Counted from the stretch's first letter, positions 12,877-26,502 are shown. The stretch: DNA of 64,000 nt from Planctomycetota bacterium (GCA_965223505.1 CBDCWP010000010.1:166299-230298), one strand, 5' to 3'. Notes: generated by a model not told the origin, from the sequence alone. Program-made: numbers and translations.

Positions 12877-13338
12877 ATGAAGACGATGTCGTTCGATTTC
12901 CGTTGCACACCCGAGCAGCTCTGGCCCTGGCTCACCGAGCTGGAGCGCCAGAAGCAGTGGATGAAGGGGCTGCTCGAGAGCGAGCTCGTCGAAGGGGACG
13001 GGGGTGCCGGCTCCAAGATCCGCATGAAGATCAAGGAGGGCGGTCGCGTCGCGGAGTACGACGGACGATTGACCGCGTTCGAGCCGGCGAAGGAGCTCGC
13101 GCTCGACATGACCGGCGGGTGCTTCAAGGAGGGGCAATCGTTCTCGATCGTCTATCGCCTGCATCGCCTCGGCGACGGCGGCACTCGCCTCGACATTGGA
13201 TCCGACGCGAACGGCATGTCCGGCGTCACGTGGCGGCTCTTCGGCCGGCTGTTCATGTGGCTCGGCAAGATGCAGCTCAAGCGGCACATGAAGACCCTGA
13301 AGCGCCTGGCCGAGACGCCCGAACGCCAGGTCGCGTAG
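12877..13338 (+). CDS. SRPBCC/START family protein
   Basis: TPEQLWPWLTELERQKQWMKGL...GAGSKIRM...LKRLAE pattern. Confidence 0.8.
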   Translation: MKTMSFDFRCTPEQLWPWLTELERQKQWMKGLLESELVEGDGGAGSKIRMKIKEGGRVAEYDGRLTAFEPAKELALDMTGGCFKEGQSFSIVYRLHRLGDGGTRLDIGSDANGMSGVTWRLFGRLFMWLGKMQLKRHMKTLKRLAETPERQVA

Positions 13339-13451
13339 CGCCTGCGGGGGCGCCCGTTTCGCCGCTGCCATCTTTCTGGAATAATGCCGCCCCGGCCCGA
13401 TCCGGCACGCGGGCACAAGGGGGGAGTCCGCGACGTCGCCAGGAGAACCTC

Positions 13452-15464
13452 ATGCGCTCACGCAAGCGTTCCGTCATCCGTATTGCCGCAGCGGCACTCA
13501 CGCTCGCGCTGGTCACGGGAGGCTGCGGCGGCGGCGGGGGGCCGGGCTTCGTCATTCCGCTGCCGGTCGCGGGTCTGGCGCCCGCGGCGCAGATCTGGGT
13601 GCAGGACGCGACGATCGGCACGGGCGGCGGCGGCCAGTTCTTCCACGGCCAAGGGGTGGACGCCGACGGCGATGTGGTCGGCTACGAGTGGGACTTCGAG
13701 TCCGACGGCACGTTCGACAGCACCGATCAATTCGCGATCTTCCCGTACGCGACGGAGGGATTGAAGACCGTCACGTTGCGCGTTACGGATGACGAAGGCG
13801 CGACGACGACGGCGACCGCGGTGATCTCCGTTCGAAACGCACCGCCGACCGCCTCGGCGCCGACGCTGAACGTCCGCGCGTTCACGCTCTGTGCGCAGGC
13901 GAGCAAGGAGATCCTGTTCATCGCGGAAGCAGAAGACCCGGACGGCGACGCGATCACGAACTTCGCCTGGGACTTCGAGTCGGACGGCACGATCGACGTG
14001 GCCGTCGACCCGACCGGCCGCCAGAAGTTCACGTACGCGACGTCCGACACGTTCAAGTGCACGTGCACCGTCACGGACGCCGACGGGGCCACCACCGAGG
14101 CGTCCGTGGCCGTGGCCTTGTGCGACCCCGGGACCGTGCCGGAGCTGCCGCCGGCGCTGCAGATCGTGCGAGGGGACGGCATCCGCCAGACCACGGCGGG
14201 TGGATCGATCACCTTCTGCGCCGTGGGCGGGGACGTCGACGGAGGCATGCTGCCCGACGCGAGCTACACGTGGGATCTGAACAACGACGGCATCTTCGAC
14301 AACGGCGTCGGGCAGACGGTGACCACCGACTTCGGATCGGTCGTCGGCGCGTACAACGTGCGCGTGCGCGCGCTGGACGACGAGGGGAACTCCGCCGAGG
14401 CCATGATGACGGCACTGGTGCTCGCCGCGCCGGGAGCGGCTGGCCCGCCCAACGCGAGGGCGTGGGCCGAAACGATCCTGGCTCCGTCCGGCGAGGCCAT
14501 CCAATTCCACGGGCGCGGCAACGACCCTGCAGGGGATCCGGTCACGCTCAGCTGGGACTTCGACGGGGACGGCATCGAGGACTCGACAGCCAGCAACCCC
14601 ATCTTCACGTTCCCGGTGCCGGGCATCTACCGGCCGACCTTGACCGTCACGGACGGAGCGGAGACCGCCGAGGCCGACCTGACCGTCGTGATCGAGGACT
14701 GCAACGACGCAGGTCCCGGGCCGTACTTCTGGTTCGACTGCGACCCCGTCACGATCTTCCACGGCGGCAGGGCCACGATCTCGATGGGTCCGGGCGTCGT
14801 CGCGGGCAGCTCGCCGACGATGTTCTCGGTCAAGAGCATCAACGGGACCATCGGCGGCGACTTCGCGGCCGCCGAGCTGGCGACACCGGGGCTCGGTCCG
14901 CTGCCCACGGGACTGATGGCGGTTCCGGGCGTCCCGATCGCAATCACGATCGACTCCATCGCCGTCGACGGTCCGCCGGGTCTCGAGGTCTACACCGTCA
15001 CGACGCGTCTGGTGGACCCGGGCGTCCGCGTGCAAATCCTCAAGTGCCGGCTCAGCGTGGCCCACGACGTCGTGAACGCGACGTTCGACATCGCGCCGTT
15101 CGAGATAAGCGATCAATGGAACGCGCACATGCGGGTGCGGGTGAATGCCGGAGGCCAGCCGTTCGGCGGGATCCTGCCGGAGGTGTTCGCGGTCGAGATC
15201 CACCGGATGGATCAAACCCCCAACATGACCAACCTCAACTTCGTTCCGATGACGATCACGCCCGGCTGGATTCCGGCGAACATCCCCGAGGGGATCCAGT
15301 TCGGATCCATGACGCCGCTGGTCGACGGTGGTTCGGACCTCGAGTTCACCTTCAACTACCAGACCGGCGCCGGCGTTGCCGGACCGCCGGTGACCCAGGG
15401 GACGATCATCCTCCGGGGCAACAGCGGCGAGATCGTCGGCCGGCAGGCGATTCCCTATCCGTAG
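13452..15464 (+). CDS. PKD-domain surface lipoprotein
   Basis: Lipobox VTGGC; four PKD-like repeats (YEWDFESDG, FAWDFESDG, YTWDLNNDG, LSWDFDGDG); RBS AGGAG. Confidence 0.85.
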   Translation: MRSRKRSVIRIAAAALTLALVTGGCGGGGGPGFVIPLPVAGLAPAAQIWVQDATIGTGGGGQFFHGQGVDADGDVVGYEWDFESDGTFDSTDQFAIFPYATEGLKTVTLRVTDDEGATTTATAVISVRNAPPTASAPTLNVRAFTLCAQASKEILFIAEAEDPDGDAITNFAWDFESDGTIDVAVDPTGRQKFTYATSDTFKCTCTVTDADGATTEASVAVALCDPGTVPELPPALQIVRGDGIRQTTAGGSITFCAVGGDVDGGMLPDASYTWDLNNDGIFDNGVGQTVTTDFGSVVGAYNVRVRALDDEGNSAEAMMTALVLAAPGAAGPPNARAWAETILAPSGEAIQFHGRGNDPAGDPVTLSWDFDGDGIEDSTASNPIFTFPVPGIYRPTLTVTDGAETAEADLTVVIEDCNDAGPGPYFWFDCDPVTIFHGGRATISMGPGVVAGSSPTMFSVKSINGTIGGDFAAAELATPGLGPLPTGLMAVPGVPIAITIDSIAVDGPPGLEVYTVTTRLVDPGVRVQILKCRLSVAHDVVNATFDIAPFEISDQWNAHMRVRVNAGGQPFGGILPEVFAVEIHRMDQTPNMTNLNFVPMTITPGWIPANIPEGIQFGSMTPLVDGGSDLEFTFNYQTGAGVAGPPVTQGTIILRGNSGEIVGRQAIPYP

Positions 15465-16703: not shown

Positions 16704-18863
16704 ATGAAACTCCGTCGCGCCCTTTGCCTGATTGTCCTGATCTCGGCCTCCCGAGGACTCTGTGTGCCGAGCGCAGACGGCGAGGAACGGATCGAGCGGC
16801 GCGCGCCGGGCACGATCGTGCTCCGCGGCGACCCCGACCGCGTCGCCGGACACCGCATCGTGCCGGCGTTCCCGCGGCTGCGGTTCCGGCGGCCGCTCTA
16901 CTTCGGCTTCCTCCCGGACGGTTCGGGCCGGCTGTGCGTGTTGGAGCAGGACGGACGCGTCTTGCTGTTTCCCAACGCCGACAACGTCGGCCCGGAGCAG
17001 GTCCACGTCGCGCTCGACATCCGGCAGAAGGTCTATCGGAAGCACAACGAAGAGGGCCTGCTCGGCATCGCGTTCCACCCGCGGTTCGCCGAGAACCGAA
17101 CGCTGTTCATCCACTACTCGGCCAACGGCCCGCGCCGCGGCGTCGTCTCGCGCTTCCGGATGAATCGCGCGCGAACGAAGATCGATCCCCGGAGCGAGCG
17201 CGTCGTCCTGGAACAGCGCCAACCGTGGGGCAATCACAACGGCGGGGGGCTGGAGTTCGGTCCGGACGGGTACCTGTACATCACGTTCGGCGACGGCGGC
17301 GCCGGCGGCGACCCCCAGGGCAACGGCCAGAATCTCGGCACGTGGCTGGGCTCGATCTTGCGCATCGACGTGGATCGCAAGTCGCCGTACGCGGTTCCGC
17401 CCGACAACCCATTCGTCAAGCACCGCGGCGCGCGCCCGGAGATCTGGGCGTACGGTCTGCGCAACGTGTGGCGATTCTCGTTCGACCGGCTGACCGGCGA
17501 TCTGTGGGCCGGCGACGTCGGTCAGAACGCGTGGGAAGAGATCGACCTGATCGTCAAGGGCGGCAACTACGGCTGGAAGATCCGTGAAGGCGCGCATCCG
17601 TTCCGCGGGCAGGGCCGAACGGAAGGCTTGATCGATCCGGTGATCGAGTTCGACACCTCCCAAGCGCGATCCATCACCGGCGGCTACGTGTACCGCGGCA
17701 AGAAGCTCCCGGGCCTCGTCGGTACGTACGTCTACGCGGACTATGCGACCGGCAACGTGTGGGGCTTGAAGTGGGACGGCGAGACGGTGCGCGAGAATCG
17801 CTTGCTCGGCCGCGGCCGCAGCGTGTCGAGCTTCGGAGAGGACGCCGACGGCGAAGTCTACTTCACGTCTTTCGACGGTCGCATCTACACGTTCACACGT
17901 CCGCGTCATGCGAACGCGGGCGGGCGATTCCCGCGCAAACTCTCCGAGACGGGTCTGTTCACCGACACCGCCGCGCTGACGCCGCACGCCTCGCTGATTC
18001 CGTACGAGGTCAACGTGCCGCTCTGGTCCGACGGGGCGGCGAAGCAGCGCTACGTCATGCTGCCGGGCATGGAGCGGGTGCGTGTCGGTGCCGACGGTCG
18101 CTTCACGTTCCCCCAGGGCACGATCTTCGTGAAGACGTTCTTCGCCGGCACCTCGGCGAAGGCCCCGCGGCTCGAGACCCGACTCTTTGCCCGTCGTGAC
18201 GAGGGTTGGCGGGGCTACACGTACGTCTGGAACGAGGCGCAGACCGACGCCGAGCTGATCGACGGCCGCGTCACGGCGCCGACCTCCGCCCAGGCGCGTC
18301 GCGCGGGACTGGCCGACCGCTGGACGTTTCCGAGCCGTTCGGACTGCATGAGCTGCCACACGGAGGCAGGGGGCTCGGTGCTCGGTTTTCGCGCGGAGCA
18401 GCTTCACCGCACGAACGAGCACTTCGACGAGGCCACCGTCAGCCGGCTCGAGGTGCTGCAGCGCATCGGCGTCTTCGAGGAAGGCGCCGACCCACGCGCC
18501 GTGACGTCGTTTCCGCGGTGGGACGACGGCAAAGCACCCCTCGACGGCCGGGTCCGCGCGTACCTGGATACGAACTGCGCGAGCTGTCATCAGCCGGGCG
18601 CGCCCGGCAACGCTCGCATCGACCTGCGGTACGACACGCCGCTCGGCGAGTCGCGCATGCTCGAGGAGCCGCCGGGCGACGACGACCTGGGCGTGCCGAA
18701 CGCGCGCATCGTCAAACCGGGCCGTCCGAATCAGTCGCTGCTGCTGCTTCGCATGTTACGCACCGACGAGAAGGGCATGCCGCACATCGCCCACGAGTCG
18801 GTCGACCGCAAGGCCGTCGACCTCGTCACGCGATGGATTCGATCGCTGCGTCCGCTGAAGTAG
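16704..18863 (+). CDS. PQQ-dependent sugar dehydrogenase (GSDH) fused to diheme cytochrome c, paralog 1
   Basis: EEGLLGIAFHP, NHNGGGLEFGPDGYLY, EIWAYGLRNVWRFSFD, GGNYGW; two CxxCH motifs (CMSCH, CASCH); signal peptide. Confidence 0.9.
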   Translation: MKLRRALCLIVLISASRGLCVPSADGEERIERRAPGTIVLRGDPDRVAGHRIVPAFPRLRFRRPLYFGFLPDGSGRLCVLEQDGRVLLFPNADNVGPEQVHVALDIRQKVYRKHNEEGLLGIAFHPRFAENRTLFIHYSANGPRRGVVSRFRMNRARTKIDPRSERVVLEQRQPWGNHNGGGLEFGPDGYLYITFGDGGAGGDPQGNGQNLGTWLGSILRIDVDRKSPYAVPPDNPFVKHRGARPEIWAYGLRNVWRFSFDRLTGDLWAGDVGQNAWEEIDLIVKGGNYGWKIREGAHPFRGQGRTEGLIDPVIEFDTSQARSITGGYVYRGKKLPGLVGTYVYADYATGNVWGLKWDGETVRENRLLGRGRSVSSFGEDADGEVYFTSFDGRIYTFTRPRHANAGGRFPRKLSETGLFTDTAALTPHASLIPYEVNVPLWSDGAAKQRYVMLPGMERVRVGADGRFTFPQGTIFVKTFFAGTSAKAPRLETRLFARRDEGWRGYTYVWNEAQTDAELIDGRVTAPTSAQARRAGLADRWTFPSRSDCMSCHTEAGGSVLGFRAEQLHRTNEHFDEATVSRLEVLQRIGVFEEGADPRAVTSFPRWDDGKAPLDGRVRAYLDTNCASCHQPGAPGNARIDLRYDTPLGESRMLEEPPGDDDLGVPNARIVKPGRPNQSLLLLRMLRTDEKGMPHIAHESVDRKAVDLVTRWIRSLRPLK

Positions 18864-18866
18864 CGC

Positions 18867-19850
18867 CTACAAGAACTTGGTCTTGAGCTTCTCGGCGATC
18901 TTCTGCGCTTCCTGGCCTGCCTTGGTGTTCTCGTACTTCTTCTTCGTCAGCGACTTGATGATGGCGTACTGCTTCTTGTAGTTCGACTCTTCCGCCATCT
19001 TCGCTTTGGCCTTCGCGAGCTTCTTGCTGGCATCCACCTCGAGCTTGAGCTCCTTGTCCTTCAGGATCTCCTTGGCGGCGGCCTGCGCCTGCTTGCCGTA
19101 GTCGTGCCCCTTGAACTCCTTGGCGACGCGCTCGTAGGCGAGGAACGCGTCGTACACGTTGCGCTCGCGCAGCGCCGCCGCCGCCTCCTCGAGCGAAGAG
19201 GTCGCGGTCCACTCCAACCAGGCCTTGATCTCGTTCGCGGCTTCCAGCTCGTCGCCTTCGACCTTTTCGCCCTCGATGGCCGCGTTCACCTTCTTGAGCG
19301 CGTCGGCGAACTTCTGCTTGCCGATGGCCTTCTCGACCTTCGAGAGCGACGCCGGGAACGCCGGAAGGAGCCGGATGCTCGCCAGGGCCTCCTCGATCAT
19401 CTCGGTGGTGACGGACGCCGGGTGGTCCACGACGAGCACCTTGCCGCGCGCGTCGATCAGAACCGCCGAGGGGTAGCTGTTGCGGCCGTACGCCGCCATG
19501 GAGTCGGTTTTCTCGCTGATGATCGGGTGCTTCGCGTCGGTCTTCTCGATGAACGCCTCGATGCGCGATGCCGGTTCCTTCGAGATGGAGATGACCGTCA
19601 GGCCCTTGGGGCCGTACTTCTCGTGAAGCTCGTCCAGGTGACCCACCTGGTTCACACACGGGCCTCAGGTCGTTGCGAAGAGCTCGAGGAACACGACGCG
19701 CCCGCGCAGGTCCTCGAGGGTGACCGGGTCGGTGTTGAAGAACTCGTCGCCCTCGAAGGCGGCGGCGGGATCCCCGACCCCGGCGACGGCCGAGGTGCTG
19801 GACAGGAGGAGAACGCCGAGGACGGCGCCTGCAACGGCGATCTTGCTCAT
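18867..19850 (-). CDS. Secreted TlpA/AhpC-TSA-type redoxin selenoprotein (UxxC) with helical C-terminal domain
   Basis: ORF pieces 19665-19850 and 18867-19655 are in frame across TGA 19665-19667: LEDLRGRVVFLELFATT-U-GPC-VNQVGHLDELHEKYGPKGLTVISIS...YPSAVLIDARGKV; signal peptide. Confidence 0.88.
19623..19655 (-). promoter_or_regulatory. SECIS-like hairpin 3' of UGA
   Basis: GUGAA-CCAGGUG-GGU-CACCUGG-ACGAGC-UUCAC: perfect 7-bp upper stem, G-first loop 21 nt after the UGA, 5-bp lower stem. Confidence 0.65.
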
Positions 19851-19903
19851 CGAACACTCCAGATCGAGTTGCCGCGAGTATAGCGCTACGCGCCGAAATC
19901 CGG

Positions 19904-21004
19904 CTACGCGCTCGTCAGCACCACGGCGCCGGCTTGCCCGAGAAGGCCGCCGGTCAGGACCAAGACCCCGTTCGAGGCCCGTTGGGCGGCCAGCGCGACG
20001 ACGATCGACTCGTGGGCTGCGGCGAGATACCCCAAGTGCTTCGACGGCGTCCAGGCCTCGGCTTCGAGCGTCGCAACGGCCGCGTCCGCCTCGGCGCGGG
20101 CCGCCGCGGTCGCGCACGGGGGCGTCACGACGAGGGCGATCCGCGCTCGGCGCGCGTCACGCAACGCGCCCTGAAGCGCCGCCGCCAGCGTCTGTCGTTC
20201 GGGCCCGTAGCCCACCGCCGGCCCCGTTGACGCGGCCGATCCGGCGATGGTCGCGAGCGGACGCGCGCCGCGTCGCTCCGCGTGCGCGCGCGTCTCGATC
20301 ACCAACGCGCCCGCGCCGTCGCCGGGCTCCAGCGCGTCGAGCTCGAGCTGATCGATCTCGTGCAACGCGACGGGCGCGCTGCCGACCGACGCGCCGACGA
20401 CGACGGCGAGGTCGAGCCGTCCGGTCGCAACGGACCGGGCTGCGAGCGAGAGCAGGTGTTGCGACGTCGCGGAGAACCCCGCCACGCTCGTGTTCGCGCC
20501 TTGCAGCTCGTACCAGGTAGCGAGAAACGAGTAGACGTTGTTCTTCAGGTTCTCGAGCAGGAAGAACGGCTTCACGCGGCGCGCGCACGCCTGGTTGAGG
20601 GTCTTTGCCTCGTACGTTCGCCCTTCCGGGTTCGCGGCCACGAACCCCGGCCGGAAGTCCAGGCACGCCCACTCGGTTGCGTCGCCCTGTGCGAGATAGA
20701 GTCCCTTTCTCGGGCCCGCGATCTCGCCGCCGTCCAGCCCGGCTTGCAGCGCCGCCTCGCGCGTGGCGTCCACGGCGAACCGGCCGCTGGCGCTCAGGAA
20801 CTTGATCTGGCTCTCGAGGTCGCGCGGCACGTCGCAGTGGATCGACGTGTCCTCGATGCGCGCGCCGCGAACGGGCGTTGCGCCGTAGAGATTGCGAACG
20901 GCGGACGCGCCGGATGTCAGTTGCGACGTCGTGGTATCCACGCCCCGCCCGAGCGCGGTGACGACACCGGCGCCGGTGATGACGACGTCGCACTTGTCGT
21001 TCAC
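19904..21004 (-). CDS. Ketosynthase-like protein lacking the catalytic Cys (CLF/KS-beta-like)
   Basis: VVITGAGVVTALG, PFFLLENLKNN, PGDGAGALVIE; ANTSVAGFSATS where the Cys is expected. Confidence 0.8.
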   Translation of the reverse strand: MNDKCDVVITGAGVVTALGRGVDTTTSQLTSGASAVRNLYGATPVRGARIEDTSIHCDVPRDLESQIKFLSASGRFAVDATREAALQAGLDGGEIAGPRKGLYLAQGDATEWACLDFRPGFVAANPEGRTYEAKTLNQACARRVKPFFLLENLKNNVYSFLATWYELQGANTSVAGFSATSQHLLSLAARSVATGRLDLAVVVGASVGSAPVALHEIDQLELDALEPGDGAGALVIETRAHAERRGARPLATIAGSAASTGPAVGYGPERQTLAAALQGALRDARRARIALVVTPPCATAAARAEADAAVATLEAEAWTPSKHLGYLAAAHESIVVALAAQRASNGVLVLTGGLLGQAGAVVLTSA

Positions 21005-21453
21005 GACGACTCCGGCGCGCCGCGAAGCATGTCGAACGACCGCCGGGCCGCCTCTCGCGAGGCGAGATCCTCGAGCGCGGTCACCCGTGCTTCGAACTCG
21101 ATCACGGCGGCGCGTTCGCCCTCGACCGACGCCTCGGCCCGGTAGGCGCGGCGTGCTTCGTCGTCCGACGCCGTCCGCTCGATCGACAGGTCCACGCGGT
21201 CGCCCGGCGCGGCGAACCGGTAATAGCGGGCGGAGACGACGCGATCCAAGAGCACCCAACGCTCGAACGCCGAGGACGACGCCTCCATCCAGCCGGCGAG
21301 CTGTGCGAGCGCCTCGAGAATCAGCATGCCGGGCAGGATCGGCCGCTCGGGAAAGTGCCACTCGAGGTAGTCCTCGCTCATGGCCACGTTCTTCCAGCCG
21401 GTTGCGCGGTCGGCCTCGATGGACCGGATCCGATCGACGAGCAGGTACCTCAT
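21001..21453 (-). CDS. fabZ: 3-hydroxyacyl-ACP dehydratase, FabZ family
   Basis: MRYLLVDRI, KNVAMSEDYLEWHFPERPILPGMLILEALAQ. Confidence 0.9.
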   Translation of the reverse strand: MRYLLVDRIRSIEADRATGWKNVAMSEDYLEWHFPERPILPGMLILEALAQLAGWMEASSSAFERWVLLDRVVSARYYRFAAPGDRVDLSIERTASDDEARRAYRAEASVEGERAAVIEFEARVTALEDLASREAARRSFDMLRGAPESS

Positions 21454-21848
21454 GCGCCCGCCCTCTGGAGGATCACCGATGCCATGGCGTGCGCGCCGGT
21501 GTGGGTCAACGAGACCGACGCTGCTCCGAGCGCCTGCGTGCGGGCGACGCGCAGCGGCCGTCCCGAGAGCCGAAGCGTCGGCGCGCGGCCTTCCCGCACG
21601 ACTTCGATCTCCTTGAGCGCGCGGTCGATGCCGGTGGGCGTGATGCCGATGCCCAGCGCCTTGAGCGCGGCCTCCTTCGCCGCGAAACGGGCCGCGAAGT
21701 GCGGCAGCGGATCCGGGTGTCGCCGGCAATAGCTGCGCTCGTCGTCGGTGAACACGCGCGCCTCGAACGCTGCGTGCCGCGCCATCACATCGCGCAGATG
21801 CGCGACGTCGACGAGGTCGATGCCGTGGCGAACCGAGCCCTTCTTCAT
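21450..21848 (-). CDS. acpS: Holo-ACP synthase
   Basis: GIDLVDV, RVFTDDE, AARFAAKEAALKALG, SVSLTH. Confidence 0.95.
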   Translation of the reverse strand: MKKGSVRHGIDLVDVAHLRDVMARHAAFEARVFTDDERSYCRRHPDPLPHFAARFAAKEAALKALGIGITPTGIDRALKEIEVVREGRAPTLRLSGRPLRVARTQALGAASVSLTHTGAHAMASVILQRAGA

Positions 21849-22600
21849 GCGACCGACATCCCTCCGTCGACCAGGAAACCCTGGCCCGTAATGTAGGCGG
21901 CGTCGTCCGAGCAGAGGAAGAGGACCAGGCCCGCCACGTCTTCCGGCGTGCCGAACCGTCCGGCCGGAATGCGTTCGAGGACCTGATCGCCGGCACGCCG
22001 CTTGACCACCGCCGTCATGTCCGTGTCGATGAAGCCGGGCAGAACCGCGTTGGCCTGGATATTGCGCCCCGCCATCTCCAGGGCGGTGGCGCGCGTGAAC
22101 GCGAGCACGCCGCCTTTGGCCGCGGCGTAGTTGGCCTGCCCGACGCCGCCGCGCACCGAGCTGATCGAGGCGATGTTGACGATGCGACCGGCGCGCGCGC
22201 GCATCATCGGCCGCAGCGCGGCGCGCGTGCAGAGATAGACCCCCGTGAGATTCACGTCGATGACGCGCTGCCAGTCCTCGGGTCGCATCGTGAGCAGCAA
22301 CGTGTCCTTCACGATGCCGGCGTTGTTCACGAGCGCGTCGAGGCGACCGTGGTCATCGAGCACACGTTCGAAGAGCGCGCGTACGCCGTCTTCGTTGCCG
22401 ACGTCGGCCCGGACGGCTTGGGCGCTGCCGCCGGCGGCCTCGATCTCCGCGACCAAGGACGCGGCGTCATCGGCGGACGACGCGTAGTTGGCGATCACGT
22501 GGGCGCCGTTCGCTGCGAGACGCCGGGCCACCGCCCGTCCGATGCCGCGGGAAGCGCCCGTCACGAGCGCGACGCGGTCATGCAGGTTGTCGCGAATCAT
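21845..22600 (-). CDS. fabG: 3-oxoacyl-ACP reductase
   Basis: TGASRGIG, NNAGIVKD, GQANYAAAK, PGFIDTDM. Confidence 0.93.
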   Translation of the reverse strand: MIRDNLHDRVALVTGASRGIGRAVARRLAANGAHVIANYASSADDAASLVAEIEAAGGSAQAVRADVGNEDGVRALFERVLDDHGRLDALVNNAGIVKDTLLLTMRPEDWQRVIDVNLTGVYLCTRAALRPMMRARAGRIVNIASISSVRGGVGQANYAAAKGGVLAFTRATALEMAGRNIQANAVLPGFIDTDMTAVVKRRAGDQVLERIPAGRFGTPEDVAGLVLFLCSDDAAYITGQGFLVDGGMSVA

Positions 22601-23826
22601 GCGTCGTCTCCGAAAGCCCGCACCGCCAAGACGGCGTTCTGTCCGCCGAACGCGAAGGAGTTGTTCAGCGCGGCGGTGACCACCGCTTGCCGGCTCGCGT
22701 CCGGGACGAGGTCCAGATCGCATGCCGGGTCCGGTTGCGTCAAGTTGCGTGTCGGCGGCACCGCGCCGCGGCGGATGGCGAGGACGCAGAAGATGAACGC
22801 GACGCCGGCCGCGGCCGAGAGCAGATGGCCGATCGCGCCCTTGCCGGACGACACGGCCAACGCGGCGGCGTGATCCCCGAACACCGTGTGGATCGCCCGG
22901 ACCTCGGCGGGGTCGTTGCGCTTCGTCCCGGTCCCGTGGGCGTTGACGAACTGGACCTCGCTCGGCGCGAGTCCGCCGTCGCGCAGCGCGGCGTCCATGG
23001 CTTCCGCGGCGCCGCGGCCGTCCGGCGGCGGTGCGGTCGTGCGATAGGCGTCCAGCGAGGAGCCGTAGCCGGCCACCTCGGCGTAGATGCGCGCCCCACG
23101 GGCGCGGGCGTGTTCGAGCTCCTCGAGCACGACGCAGCCGGCGCCCTCGCCCATGACCAGCCCCGAGCGCTTGCGGTCGAACGGCTTGCAGGCCGCGGCC
23201 GGATCGTCCCCGACCGAAGCGGAGGCGCCCAGCAGCACGAAGAAGACGAGTCCCAGCGGGTTGATCATCGAGTCCGCGCCGCCGGCGATCATCCAGTCCG
23301 TCTCGCCCCGGCGAATGCTGCGAAACGCGGCGCCGAGCGCCTGGTTGGACGCGGAGCAGGCCGTGGTCACCGCGTGCACCGGACCGCCGAGACCCAATTC
23401 CCGGGCCAACAGTACGGCCGGCAGCTCCGCCGTGTTGCGGATCAGACTCTCCGGATGGACCGCCGCCGCATCGTCGACGCCGACGTCCTCGAGCCGGTGG
23501 ACGCCGGGGCCGGAACCCAGGATCACGCCGGCCCGGTCGTGCGCCCCGCGTTCGATGCCGGCGTCGGCAGCCGCGTTCGTTCCGGCGGCGACGCCGAACA
23601 GCGTGCGCAGATCGCATGCCGCGGCGGCAGGCAGGGAGGTGCGCAGGCGCTCGACCACGGCGTCGTCGACCTCGCCGACCGCGCCCGTGGGGGGGCGCGT
23701 CGCACCGTGCCGCCGCGACGCCGTGACGCCCGCGTCTCCGCCCAGCATGCGCTCCCACACCGTGTCCACGTCGTCTCCGAACGGTGTGACCAGCCCCAGC
23801 CCTGTGATGACCACGCGCCGGCTCAT
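22597..23826 (-). CDS. fabF: Beta-ketoacyl-ACP synthase (FabF-like, active C-H-H triad)
   Basis: TTACSAS, NAHGTGT, GAIGHLL, NNSFAFGGQN. Confidence 0.92.
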   Translation of the reverse strand: MSRRVVITGLGLVTPFGDDVDTVWERMLGGDAGVTASRRHGATRPPTGAVGEVDDAVVERLRTSLPAAAACDLRTLFGVAAGTNAAADAGIERGAHDRAGVILGSGPGVHRLEDVGVDDAAAVHPESLIRNTAELPAVLLARELGLGGPVHAVTTACSASNQALGAAFRSIRRGETDWMIAGGADSMINPLGLVFFVLLGASASVGDDPAAACKPFDRKRSGLVMGEGAGCVVLEELEHARARGARIYAEVAGYGSSLDAYRTTAPPPDGRGAAEAMDAALRDGGLAPSEVQFVNAHGTGTKRNDPAEVRAIHTVFGDHAAALAVSSGKGAIGHLLSAAAGVAFIFCVLAIRRGAVPPTRNLTQPDPACDLDLVPDASRQAVVTAALNNSFAFGGQNAVLAVRAFGDDA

Positions 23827-24266
23827 GCGCCGAGGACCCCGCCGTAGTACGCGAACCGCTTCCGCAGGACGTCGGGTTCGGGATGGGGGAGATGACCGTA
23901 CAAGACCCGGCCGATGCGCGCGACCTCGACCCCGTCGACCTCAGCCCACGCGTGCCCGATCGACCCCTTGGGGTTCGTGCCCCGTAGCTCGCCGAAGAGC
24001 GTCAGCGTGCGCCCGGGACCGATCTCGGGGACCACCTCGACGTCCTCCAGCACCGAGAGAACGACCATGAGCGTGTAGTCGTGGCGGTGGATCGCGAGCC
24101 AACCGAGGAGCTGCACCATCGCCTCGATGATCAGCGACGACGGCACGAGCGCCCTGCGATCGAAGTGGCCGCGCAGGTACTCCTCGGAGATCGACAGTGA
24201 CTTCACGCCCTCGATGCGGTTGCCGGGCTCGAAACGGGTGACGCGGTCGAAGAGAAGGAATCTCAC
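23823..24266 (-). CDS. Second FabZ-like hot-dog dehydratase
   Basis: VRFLLFDRV, KSLSISEEYLRGHFDRRALVPSSLIIEAMVQ; GTG overlaps the upstream stop. Confidence 0.85.
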   Translation of the reverse strand: MRFLLFDRVTRFEPGNRIEGVKSLSISEEYLRGHFDRRALVPSSLIIEAMVQLLGWLAIHRHDYTLMVVLSVLEDVEVVPEIGPGRTLTLFGELRGTNPKGSIGHAWAEVDGVEVARIGRVLYGHLPHPEPDVLRKRFAYYGGVLGA

Positions 24267-25213
24267 GGCGACTCCAACAGGATCGCAGCGCAACCGCCGT
24301 GGCTGGCCCGCGTGAGCACGAGCGCGCTGCCCGCGCCGGTCGCGTGGAAGTGGTCCACGCAGGCGACGAGATCGACGAGCGGTTCCGCCGCGCCGCGGCT
24401 CGAGCGCACGGCGCCGCGTTGCTCGACCAGCGCATCGGCGAGGCCGTAGGCCTGGAGCTCGAACCACAGGTCCAGTGGCGCGCGGACGTGCCCGACGCTC
24501 TGCGGATCGCGTTCTCGAAGCACCGTGCGAATGGCGCGCGTGCAGGCGTCGCCGGAGCCGTACTCGAAGGTCGACGTTCCCGCGACGACGAAGGCCAGGG
24601 CAGCGACCCCTCGATCCTTCGCCGACGCCTCCGACTCGAGCACGCACGCCGCGCCCGCCTGCTCGCGTTCGGCCGGCTCACCCCGCAGCGCGTCCCGTAG
24701 CCGGGCGGGCGTCGTCAGGTCCTCGGACACGCCCGCGCACAGCGCGGCCTGTGCGGCGCCTTCGTCGATGGCGTGATGGGCTTCGATGAGCGCGCGCATG
24801 CCGGCATCGGACTCGCTGGCCAGGACGGCGTTGTCTCCGCGAATGCCGAGGTCGGTGGCGATCTGTCCCGCCGCGACGTTGTTCAGCATCGCGAGCGGCC
24901 ACAACGGGTGAATCGAACGGTACGCGCCCGCGAAGAAGCGGGCTTCGTCGATCCGCCCGTCCACGCGCGACGCGTCGGCGGCCGCGACGAGATCGTCGGC
25001 GCCGTCGACCATGCCCATGCCGAAGAAGAGCCCCACGCGGCGCGGGTCCAGCTCCTGCAGACGTCCCCGGCGGTACGCCTCCGGCGCGACCGTCTCCAAC
25101 ATCCGACCGTGCGCGCCGAGAATGCGGAGCGCCGGATCGGCATCGACGTCCATCACGTCCGACGACGCCATGTCGCTTCGACACGCGGCCGTGATCGCGA
25201 CGCGCCCGGCCAT
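24263..25213 (-). CDS. Second Cys-less ketosynthase-like protein (CLF-like)
   Basis: RVGLFFGMG, HPLWPLAMLNNVAAGQIA, GIRGDNAVLASESDAG (no Cys). Confidence 0.8.
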   Translation of the reverse strand: MAGRVAITAACRSDMASSDVMDVDADPALRILGAHGRMLETVAPEAYRRGRLQELDPRRVGLFFGMGMVDGADDLVAAADASRVDGRIDEARFFAGAYRSIHPLWPLAMLNNVAAGQIATDLGIRGDNAVLASESDAGMRALIEAHHAIDEGAAQAALCAGVSEDLTTPARLRDALRGEPAEREQAGAACVLESEASAKDRGVAALAFVVAGTSTFEYGSGDACTRAIRTVLRERDPQSVGHVRAPLDLWFELQAYGLADALVEQRGAVRSSRGAAEPLVDLVACVDHFHATGAGSALVLTRASHGGCAAILLESP

Positions 25214-26502
25214 CAAGCAGCCGGTCCCAGGCACAGACAGCCGTTCTGCCCGCCGAACCCGAACGAACTGGAGAGCACGACCGAGTGTTCCATCTCGCGC
25301 GCCTCGTTGGGCACGTAGTCGAGGTCGCAGCGCCGGTCGGGAAACTCGTAGTTGATCGTGGGGAGCACCACGCCGTCGCGCATGCCGCGAAGGCTCAGGA
25401 TCGCTTCGATCGCGCCCGCGGCGCCGATCGTGTGCCCGAGCATGCTCTTGTTGCTGGAGACAGGCACCCGCGCGGCGCGCCCGCCGATCACGCGCTTGAT
25501 CGCGAGCGTCTCGACGGGGTCGTTGGTCGGTGTCGAGGTGCCGTGGGCGTTCACGTAGTCGACGTCGTCGGGCGTGAGCCCGGCGTCGCGGATCGCGCGC
25601 CGCATGGCGAGCACGGCCCCGTCGCCGCGCGGATGCACGTCGGTGATGCGATAGGCGTCGGCCGAGTCTCCGTATCCGAGGATCTCGCCGAGCGCGTCCA
25701 CCCCCCGCGCGCGTGCGTTCGCGAGCGTCTCCAGGATCAAGATGCCGGCGCCTTCGGCGATCACGAAGCCGTTGCGCTTTCGATCGAACGGTCGGGACGC
25801 GGCCTGCGGCGATGGATAGCGCCTGGTGAGCGCACCGAGAATGGCGAACCCGAGGTAGCCCGAGTAGGACAGCAACGGCTCGGCGCCACCGGTGACGACG
25901 GCGTCGGCGCGGCCCTCCCGTAGGAGCCGTGTCGCCTCGCCGATGGCCTGCGCACCCGCGGCGCACGCGCTCACGATCGGCAGCGCCGCGCCGCGCGCGT
26001 CGACGTAGTTCGCCAACAGCGCCGGCGCCGCGTCGGGCTGACGGACGGTGAATTGGCGGCTGTCGTACTGCGCCTCCCCGGCGAGGCCGGCGGCGTCCAG
26101 CACGCCGTCGTCGTCGGTATGGCGAACGTAGCGGTCGATCTCGGCGATGCCGGGGGTCGAGCCGTGGCCGCCGAGCACGACGGCGACGCGGGTGCGGTCC
26201 TCGATCTCGTCGAGCTTCGCGGTGCGGCGCGCGTCGTCGGTGGCCGTGCGTGCGAGGCGTAGCTCGGAGCCGCCCCGCTCGTCGTCCGGGTGCGGCGGCG
26301 CGAGATCGTCGTCATCGATCTGGCCGGCGATGTCGCACGGCAGGCCCGTGGCGTCGAAGCGGCGCACGACGTCCACGCCCGAGCGGCCCGCGCGCATGGC
26401 CGCGAAGACGTCGTCCAGGTCGCGGCCGAGCGGTGTGACGAGCCCCATGCCGGTGACGACGACGCGCTGCCGCGGGTCGATGTCGTCACGGCCCGCGAGC
26501 AC
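25213..26502 (-). CDS. fabF: Beta-ketoacyl-ACP synthase (FabF-like)
   Basis: VSACAAG, NAHGTST, KSMLGHTIGAAG, SSSFGFGGQN. Confidence 0.93.
   Translation of the reverse strand: MLAGRDDIDPRQRVVVTGMGLVTPLGRDLDDVFAAMRAGRSGVDVVRRFDATGLPCDIAGQIDDDDLAPPHPDDERGGSELRLARTATDDARRTAKLDEIEDRTRVAVVLGGHGSTPGIAEIDRYVRHTDDDGVLDAAGLAGEAQYDSRQFTVRQPDAAPALLANYVDARGAALPIVSACAAGAQAIGEATRLLREGRADAVVTGGAEPLLSYSGYLGFAILGALTRRYPSPQAASRPFDRKRNGFVIAEGAGILILETLANARARGVDALGEILGYGDSADAYRITDVHPRGDGAVLAMRRAIRDAGLTPDDVDYVNAHGTSTPTNDPVETLAIKRVIGGRAARVPVSSNKSMLGHTIGAAGAIEAILSLRGMRDGVVLPTINYEFPDRRCDLDYVPNEAREMEHSVVLSSSFGFGGQNGCLCLGPAA

Follow-up and report, generated by a model that had tools for sequence, protein, structure and literature searches.

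Organization of the Locus

The window considered here is the whole analyzed stretch of 64,000 nt from a Planctomycetota bacterium (GCA_965223505.1 CBDCWP010000010.1:166299-230298), whose own genome is labelled G000. Its minus strand holds a gene which reads as a single protein once TGA is translated as selenocysteine (Sec, U). The features of this gene, together with the basis of each assignment, are the following:

19850..18867, minus strand: predicted selenoprotein coding sequence, complete, 327 aa (translation with TGA as U, and full-length in-frame homologs)
19850..19848 and 18869..18867, minus strand: start codon ATG and stop codon TAG, respectively (translation with TGA as U)
19857..19860, minus strand: Shine-Dalgarno-like GGAG, 6 nt before the ATG (sequence reading)
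19782..19850, minus strand: signal-peptide-like N-terminus MSKIAVAGAVLGVLLLSSTSAVA, approximately residues 1-23 (hydrophobic in 22/22 aligned copies)
19377..19778, minus strand: TlpA/ResA/DsbE-type thioredoxin-fold domain, residues 25-158 (Pfam, family profile against the PDB, VIA)
19667..19665, minus strand: putative Sec codon UGA for U62, nucleophile at the N-terminal end of U-G-P-C (TGA 19/22, TGC 3/22)
19656..19658, minus strand: codon of C65, the resolving Cys of U-G-P-C (invariant column of alignment A1)
19650..19634, minus strand: candidate bSECIS hairpin CCAGGUG-GGU-CACCUGG, loop 19643..19641, within the N-Q-V-G-H-L-D codons
19470..19472, minus strand: codon of P127, an invariant proline presumably in the cis-Pro loop opposite the active site (A1 column)
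18870..19376, minus strand: all-helical, TPR-like C-terminal domain, residues 159-327, eight helices (AF2 model)

The sole recoded codon is that of U62, in the context VFLELFATT-U-GPC-VNQ. Because the active-site residue would be Sec, encoded by TGA, one gene takes on the appearance of two ORFs: under translation table 11 the 5' ORF ends at the TGA, and a second ORF of 262 aa runs from GTG 19655 to TAG 18869..18867. The original prediction had proposed that both ORFs lie in one frame across TGA 19665-19667 and that standard pipelines would split the gene. The single 327-residue reading on the minus strand agrees with the former point, and the public gene calls, which keep downstream fragments only, agree with the latter; the seven closest public proteins (the gene's own fragment aside) have 239-258 aa at 73-78% query cover, and are either unnamed or called "hypothetical protein."

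Taken literally, such calls describe a TGA that is a true stop, leaving either a pseudogene or a 61-residue secreted peptide followed by a 262-residue protein initiated at GTG 19655. This is the plain table 11 reading, and public callers report nothing else than downstream fragments of 239-262 aa; such a fragment, on the other hand, would be without the signal peptide and without the first residue of the active site, and the comparison with homologs described in the next section weighs further against it.

The same genome also encodes a paralog (G000:C43:78744-79733, plus strand, equivalent to L041:1477-2496) of 340 aa and 45% identity, containing UGPC with an in-frame TGA; 14 additional residues separate its two domains, as in one other member of the family (L036).

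Conservation of the TGA Codon Among Homologs

Searched in six frames, 41 related genomes gave full-length matches in most of those belonging to the same GTDB family. Among the 26 rows at E ≤ 1e-55, 23 contained exactly one in-frame TGA (one of these also a TAG), and three contained none. The homologs align over residues 5-325, with conserved coding sequence on both sides of the TGA. Alignment A1 comprises 22 copies, i.e., 21 copies from 20 loci plus the paralog from the window's own genome, and its column 62 holds TGA (U) in 19 of them and TGC (C) in the other three. The 19 Sec-type copies read U-x-P-C (UGPC, UVPC or UKPC), the Cys-type copies (L030, L037, and L038) read CGPC, and the invariant columns of the alignment include U/C62, P64, C65, Q68, H71, L72, and P127. 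Cys or TGA at this column is what the original prediction had proposed to look for; rather than ending at the codon, the homologs run on in frame with one or the other (19 TGA and 3 Cys of 22).

Wider samples extend this picture. A scan for the pattern QV[VGP]HL..., with one genome per species, returned 36 loci with 37 copies: 34 loci belong to planctomycete-labelled MAGs, one to a genome labelled only "bacterium," and one to the cultured Rohdeia mirabilis Pla163. TGA occupies the column in 37/37 of these copies, a figure which is no unbiased ratio because the scan pattern favors Sec-type sequence. In an even sample of the phylum, a homolog was found in 109 of 301 genomes (E ≤ 1e-22); the 135 match rows contained TGA in 108 cases (2 of them also TAG), no stop in 26, and TAG only in one. 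Some of the rows without stop are partial and fall short of residue 62, and the 108 are rows containing an in-frame TGA, its placement at column 62 having been made in 59 translated copies. These homolog counts overstate independence, since the sequences are kin. Tandem duplicates were also observed in two genomes of the neighboring GTDB family (L040:405-1373 and L040:1492-2442, minus strand; also L073), with TGA in both copies.

For the true-stop reading, these distributions are difficult to accommodate: both halves are conserved in one frame in dozens of genomes with TGA at a single column, three orthologs carry Cys and no stop at that place, and phylum-wide conservation is not expected of a nonsense mutation. 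We therefore consider a genuine termination codon at this position very improbable.

A different objection is that a sequencing or assembly error has turned TGC/TGT into TGA, or that the UGA is read through by means other than Sec (e.g., with near-cognate Trp or Cys). Whether reads would carry TGC or TGT at the codon can be judged from X1 and X2, two runs of one sample, whose contig assemblies show TGA alone and no other letter; that sample may be the very source of the assembly, a circumstance which leaves some room for the error hypothesis. A run from a second sample (X3) yielded no contig across 19536-19711 and hence gives no independent check of the codon. The same TGA is nonetheless present in independent genomes from many studies, and three copies of the family itself (L028, L030, and L036) terminate at a TGA, which argues against readthrough without Sec. 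The remaining evidence bearing on this objection comes from the decoding machinery and from the putative SECIS element.

Selenocysteine Machinery

The original prediction pointed to selA, selB, selD, and tRNA-Sec as the genes to be sought, and all four were found in the window's genome. The tRNA-Sec scores 69.2 bits (gathering score 47), and is reported by ARAGORN as tRNA-SeC with anticodon TCA; selA (507 bits), selB (336 bits), and selD (338 bits) are all above their curated cut-offs. A complete machinery of this kind weighs against decoding of the UGA without Sec. The selD gene (G000:C8:38315-39232, plus strand, equivalent to L018:1441-2460) lies directly downstream of selA (C8:36851-38236). 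It contains one in-frame TGA itself, read as U31 in the motif GAGG-U-AAK of the N-terminal glycine-rich loop, which we take to be the known Sec/Cys site of SelD.

The three genomes carrying a Cys form (G021, G019, and G024) encode selA and selB with scores over the cut-offs, as do two Sec-form controls; G022 alone departs from this, its selA (263.5 bits) being cut by the contig end. An explanation of the Cys forms as loss of the Sec trait was accordingly rejected, and as the Cys-form genomes retain selA and selB, these forms are regarded as gene-specific replacements.

The Candidate SECIS Hairpin

The bSECIS model, as given in the legend of Fig. 2 of a recent review (PMC13188914), specifies an upper stem of 4-16 bp capped by a loop of 3-9 nt whose first two positions include a G (mostly G[G|U]), a UGA-to-loop distance of 16-37 nt, and an MFE ≤ -7.5 kcal/mol. 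The hairpin in the window agrees with every element of this description (GGU loop, 7 bp, 21 nt, -9.7 kcal/mol). Its stem begins 14 nt past the UGA and the first loop G stands 21 nt past it; the perfect 7-bp hairpin with a G-first loop announced 21 nt downstream of the codon is thus confirmed, the 21 nt being the distance from the UGA to the first loop G.

Considered in isolation, the hairpin offers modest evidence for a SECIS, which is suggestive only. The folding energy of the isolated element is equalled by 4/200 dinucleotide shuffles. The codons that form the stem, CAG-GUG ... CAC-CUG (Q-V-x-H-L), are without exception common in the genome; a 7-bp stem is reached in 38/300 synonymous resamplings (genome codon usage, peptide Q-V-G-H-L), and a fraction of 0.13 of the synonymous resamplings of the window hairpin passes the SECIS-model test. 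Since a single-sequence hairpin of this kind is not rare, the weight of the SECIS assignment comes from the comparison of homologs. Folding energies of the regions are unremarkable as well, both for the 71-nt region of the window (z -1.58, with 13/200 shuffles as good) and for the 45-nt region of 41 Sec copies (mean z -0.13 vs. synonymous resampling); for this reason MFE was dropped as evidence and a model-based hairpin test was used, consisting of a strict single-hairpin implementation of the published bSECIS model.

The strict test was passed by 15/41 distinct Sec copies, against 1.1 expected from synonymous resampling, and by 0/3 Cys copies. The other 26/41 distinct Sec copies, including a subgroup with the peptide QVPHL, fail it; the close relatives that fail have mostly the same hairpin with a 6-bp stem. 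In four copies (L036, L057, L053, and L055) the register lies 4 nt further upstream and the GGU loop is retained; the stems read GUGUCCA/UGGACAC in L036 and L057, GUGCCCA/UGGGCAC in L053, and GUGGCCA/UGGCCAC in L055. The middle pair therefore covaries (U-A, C-G, and G-C, respectively), and joins the second position of a V/A/G codon to the third, synonymous position of a Gly codon. The Cys copies, which read QVSHL or QAPHL, have a broken stem and no G-first loop.

In the QVPHL Sec copies (L039, L040, and L060-L076) the TGA is kept and a G-first hairpin at +21 was not found; judged from these sequences, the SECIS of this subgroup, if it exists, must lie elsewhere than at the +21 hairpin site, and one protein family may here have two types of SECIS. 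Several QVPHL copies present another short stem approximately 36-55 nt downstream, such as AAGCUC-CGUGA-GAGCUU in L039 and L067, which may take the place of the missing hairpin.

A hairpin of the SECIS model, with a compensatory change, that is kept only in the TGA copies is hardly what an error in the sequence or readthrough without Sec would leave behind, and together with the previous observations it makes these explanations very improbable, the least probable of those considered. The case for Sec recoding is well supported by the TGA/Cys column, the machinery, the comparison of SECIS hairpins, and the phylum-wide occurrence of the TGA; from these lines we infer that the TGA is very probably recoded as Sec, with incorporation of selenium into the protein.

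Fold, Motif, and Class of the N-Terminal Domain

The assignment of a TlpA/AhpC-TSA-type fold, already made in the original prediction, is borne out by several methods. The protein matches Pfam AhpC-TSA (PF00578) with 60.9 bits (cut-off 26; E 1.5e-16) and Redoxin (PF08534) with 49.8 bits (cut-off 26.6; E 4.1e-13). Compared with the PDB, the family profile finds ResA (4nmu, 3.6e-32; 1st9, 1.7e-25), TlpA (1jfu, 2.8e-12), and CcmG (3k8n, 4.6e-9), with DsbE matched as well. The full AF2 model (pLDDT 91.2, pTM 0.77, with pLDDT < 50 for residues 1-20) was matched by VIA to DsbE 3gl3_A (Z 20.1, rmsd 1.8 Å, 134 residues aligned) and to ResA 4nmu_B and 1st9_B (Z 19.0 and 18.4). In this model the thioredoxin fold spans approximately residues 28-157, and a helix begins at residue 63, which places the (C/U)xxC motif at the start of helix 1. 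The predicted export is likewise consistent with the N-terminus, which in 22/22 aligned copies is short and basic, then hydrophobic, and ends in small residues; this signal-like segment indicates export of the protein.

The curated NCBIfam models delimit the family from outside. The window protein scores 69.7 bits against the ResA model NF002854 (cut-off 170; five other members 54-87 bits) and 34 bits against the TlpA model (cut-off 230), and it is thus not a ResA/TlpA equivalog. Against the selenoprotein models NF041054 (WAxxUGC_long) and NF041382 (VPGUxxT type 1) it reaches 42.6 bits (cut-off 300) and 20.5 bits (cut-off 350); the motif here is U-G-P-C and not U-G-C in the first case, and in the second the VPGU motif is absent and the alignment is confined to the C-terminal domain. 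No NCBIfam model reached its cut-off for the window protein and five other members, so the functional assignment is made from fold and motif.

The motif (C/U)GPC is the classical thioredoxin motif, and the T at position -2 of U62 agrees with the xTWCxPC of ResA in the profile alignment. These traits bear on whether the selenoprotein might rather be a thiol peroxidase (Prx/GPx-like) acting on periplasmic peroxides instead of a protein-disulfide reductase. A peroxidase would be in line with AhpC/TSA as the top Pfam match, a weak GSHPx match (26.6 bits, cut-off 27), peroxiredoxins at Z 16-17 in the structural list, the common use of Sec in peroxidases, and the UxxT motif of the sister family NF041382, which has the same C-terminal domain. 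The peroxiredoxin signature PxxxTxx(C/U) (PMC13188914) is absent, however, as column -3 of alignment A1 holds A/S/R/G and column -7 holds L/I/F/V/Y; the motif is that of thioredoxin, its T at -2 being found in ResA and TlpA too, and the best matches in both sequence and structure are ResA, DsbE, and TlpA, not peroxiredoxins. A peroxidase is accordingly an unlikely reading, and the disulfide-reductase role, to judge from the motif and the homologs, is the probable one.

The C-Terminal Domain and the Genomic Neighborhood

An extra helical C-terminal domain had been foreseen, and the AF2 model of residues 159-327 alone consists of eight helices with pLDDT 97.0. Its relatives are hardly recognizable: TPR-type sequence matches are weak (CpoB at 4.1e-4 over 34 residues; YbgF and BamD at about 0.02), Pfam gave nothing recurrent on 22 members (TPR_21 in 1/22 at 0.015), Foldseek gave no PDB match at E ≤ 0.001 (best E 0.21), and the best match of a wide VIA comparison, the TPR of P58IPK (Z 8.0, rmsd 9.3 Å), is below the level meaningful for helical repeats. 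In view of these weak matches the domain is TPR-like at most. Its C-terminal counterpart in NF041382 is homologous, residues 161-313 of the family member L039 aligning with model positions 189-348 at 2.4e-11 and the window protein with the C-terminal part of the model at 2.4e-4; a two-domain architecture is therefore already present in a catalogued sister family, and the domain has no specific known relative except this C-terminus.

The convergent neighbor (16704..18863, plus strand) encodes a 719-aa secreted GSDH, a PQQ-type glucose/sorbosone dehydrogenase (4.9e-52), with a fused C-terminal cytochrome c region containing two CxxCH heme motifs. A GSDH-like gene stands near the family in 5/37 loci, three distant ones being without heme motifs; the corresponding neighbor cluster has 6 loci, one member of which (L072) is not GSDH-looking. 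Clustering of the neighbors of 37 loci revealed no conserved partner gene beyond the GSDH-like one, and none that points to a client; the GSDH neighborhood is a weak lead. No CcdA/DsbD or cytochrome-maturation gene is adjacent to the family; two DsbD_TM (CcdA/DsbD) genes above cut-off are present in the genome, and their products could supply the electrons of the selenoprotein.

Upstream on the same strand, 19904-26502 (minus strand) holds a fatty-acid/polyketide-type cluster with a ketoacyl-synthase-like gene that is divergent and matches in its N-terminal domain only (2.3e-13), a FabA-like gene, ACPS, and two full KAS genes, whose synteny (KAS/FabA/ACPS) with the selenoprotein gene is limited to close relatives. 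At 12903-15464 (plus strand) lies the gene of an unrelated protein of 853 aa, which contains a bacterial Ig domain along with three PKD domains.

Proposed Function and Relationship to Known Selenoproteins

ResA (Bacillus), DsbE-CcmG, and TlpA (Bradyrhizobium) are extracytoplasmic reductases involved in the maturation of cytochrome c and Cu centers. The window protein resembles them in fold (Z 18-20), profile matches (3.6e-32 to 4.6e-9), the xTW(C/U)xPC motif, the invariant Pro loop, and export, and differs in that they use Cys, not Sec, and are without the helical C-terminal domain. We propose, with a probability of roughly 0.88, that the locus encodes in one gene an exported periplasmic thiol-disulfide reductase of the TlpA/ResA type with a Sec nucleophile.

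According to this proposal, the hairpin 21 nt past the UGA would recruit SelB with Sec-tRNA(Sec), and Sec would be inserted instead of termination taking place. After export, the selenolate of U62 would attack a disulfide (or a sulfenate) of the substrate, C65 would resolve the resulting selenenylsulfide, and the oxidized Se-S form would be re-reduced, most likely through a membrane electron shuttle of the CcdA/DsbD type; the TPR-like helical domain may bind a client or partner protein. In this scheme, which way the electrons flow, what donates them, which clients are served, and what the helical domain does are matters of inference.

A more specific version can be envisaged, i.e., a phylum-wide thioredoxin-TPR selenoprotein of Planctomycetota in which the TPR-like domain would recruit a class of periplasmic clients to the selenolate site, the candidate clients being the adjacent secreted GSDH-type dehydrogenases (5/37 loci) or apocytochromes c. 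We hold this version unlikely; if true, the protein would be a reductase that depends on Sec and is dedicated to specific clients, comparable to a chaperedoxin, and not a generic TlpA.

The original prediction overrated the novelty of the general reading when it held exported selenoredoxins of this lineage to be little described. TlpA-like UxxC selenoproteins are already catalogued in Table 1 of a 2026 review (PMC13188914), which lists a "Redoxin family protein, PF08534, UxxC," a "Prx-like thiol:disulfide oxidoreductase, PF00578, UxxC," and the VPGUxxT family (the "hypothetical protein OS_HP5" lineage, NF041382), and split planctomycete candidates date from 2016 (PMC4807772). The window protein shares with the catalogued TlpA/Redoxin UxxC class, as compared by its description, the thioredoxin fold, Sec in the first position of UxxC, Cys homologs, and a bSECIS within the coding sequence, and differs by its conserved C-terminal TPR-like domain of approximately 170 residues. 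The 2016 work reported selenoprotein candidates in two planctomycetes, and its Table S9 has two entries of strain P1 described as "thiol-disulfide isomerase-like thioredoxin" (PMC4807772). These are alike, by table description alone, in phylum, kind of protein, division into two IMG genes, and a nearest match with Cys, and unlike in that the table records "SECIS present: no" for them (PMC4807772).

Regarding the curated selenoprotein families, NF041382 has the two-domain architecture and the homologous C-terminal helical domain in common with the family of the window; it differs in having VPGUxxT and not UGPC, and its model leaves the N-terminal domains of the window's family unmatched. NF041054 is likewise a ResA/TlpA-like selenoprotein of similar length (354-position model), with a U-G-C motif as opposed to the U-G-P-C found here. 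The present analysis adds how widely the family is spread in the phylum, that a curated model is missing, its TPR-like domain, and its in-codon SECIS with a covarying pair.

Meaning for the Family and the Phylum

The family represents one more Cys-to-Sec exchange in an extracytoplasmic thioredoxin-fold reductase, with a candidate SECIS built from the codons of the conserved Q-V-G-H-L peptide and accompanied by a register shift and a covarying pair. General knowledge on selenoproteins is unchanged by it, the finding being an ordinary addition to a known bacterial class. Its practical side lies in the records: more than 100 relatives from Planctomycetota are stored as "hypothetical" fragments of 240-260 residues, devoid of signal peptide and active site, and as no NCBIfam model reaches its cut-off on six members, a family model would correct many of these entries. 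Such a model would also enlarge the selenoproteome of a phylum whose name ("Planctomycet") does not occur in the 2026 review (PMC13188914).
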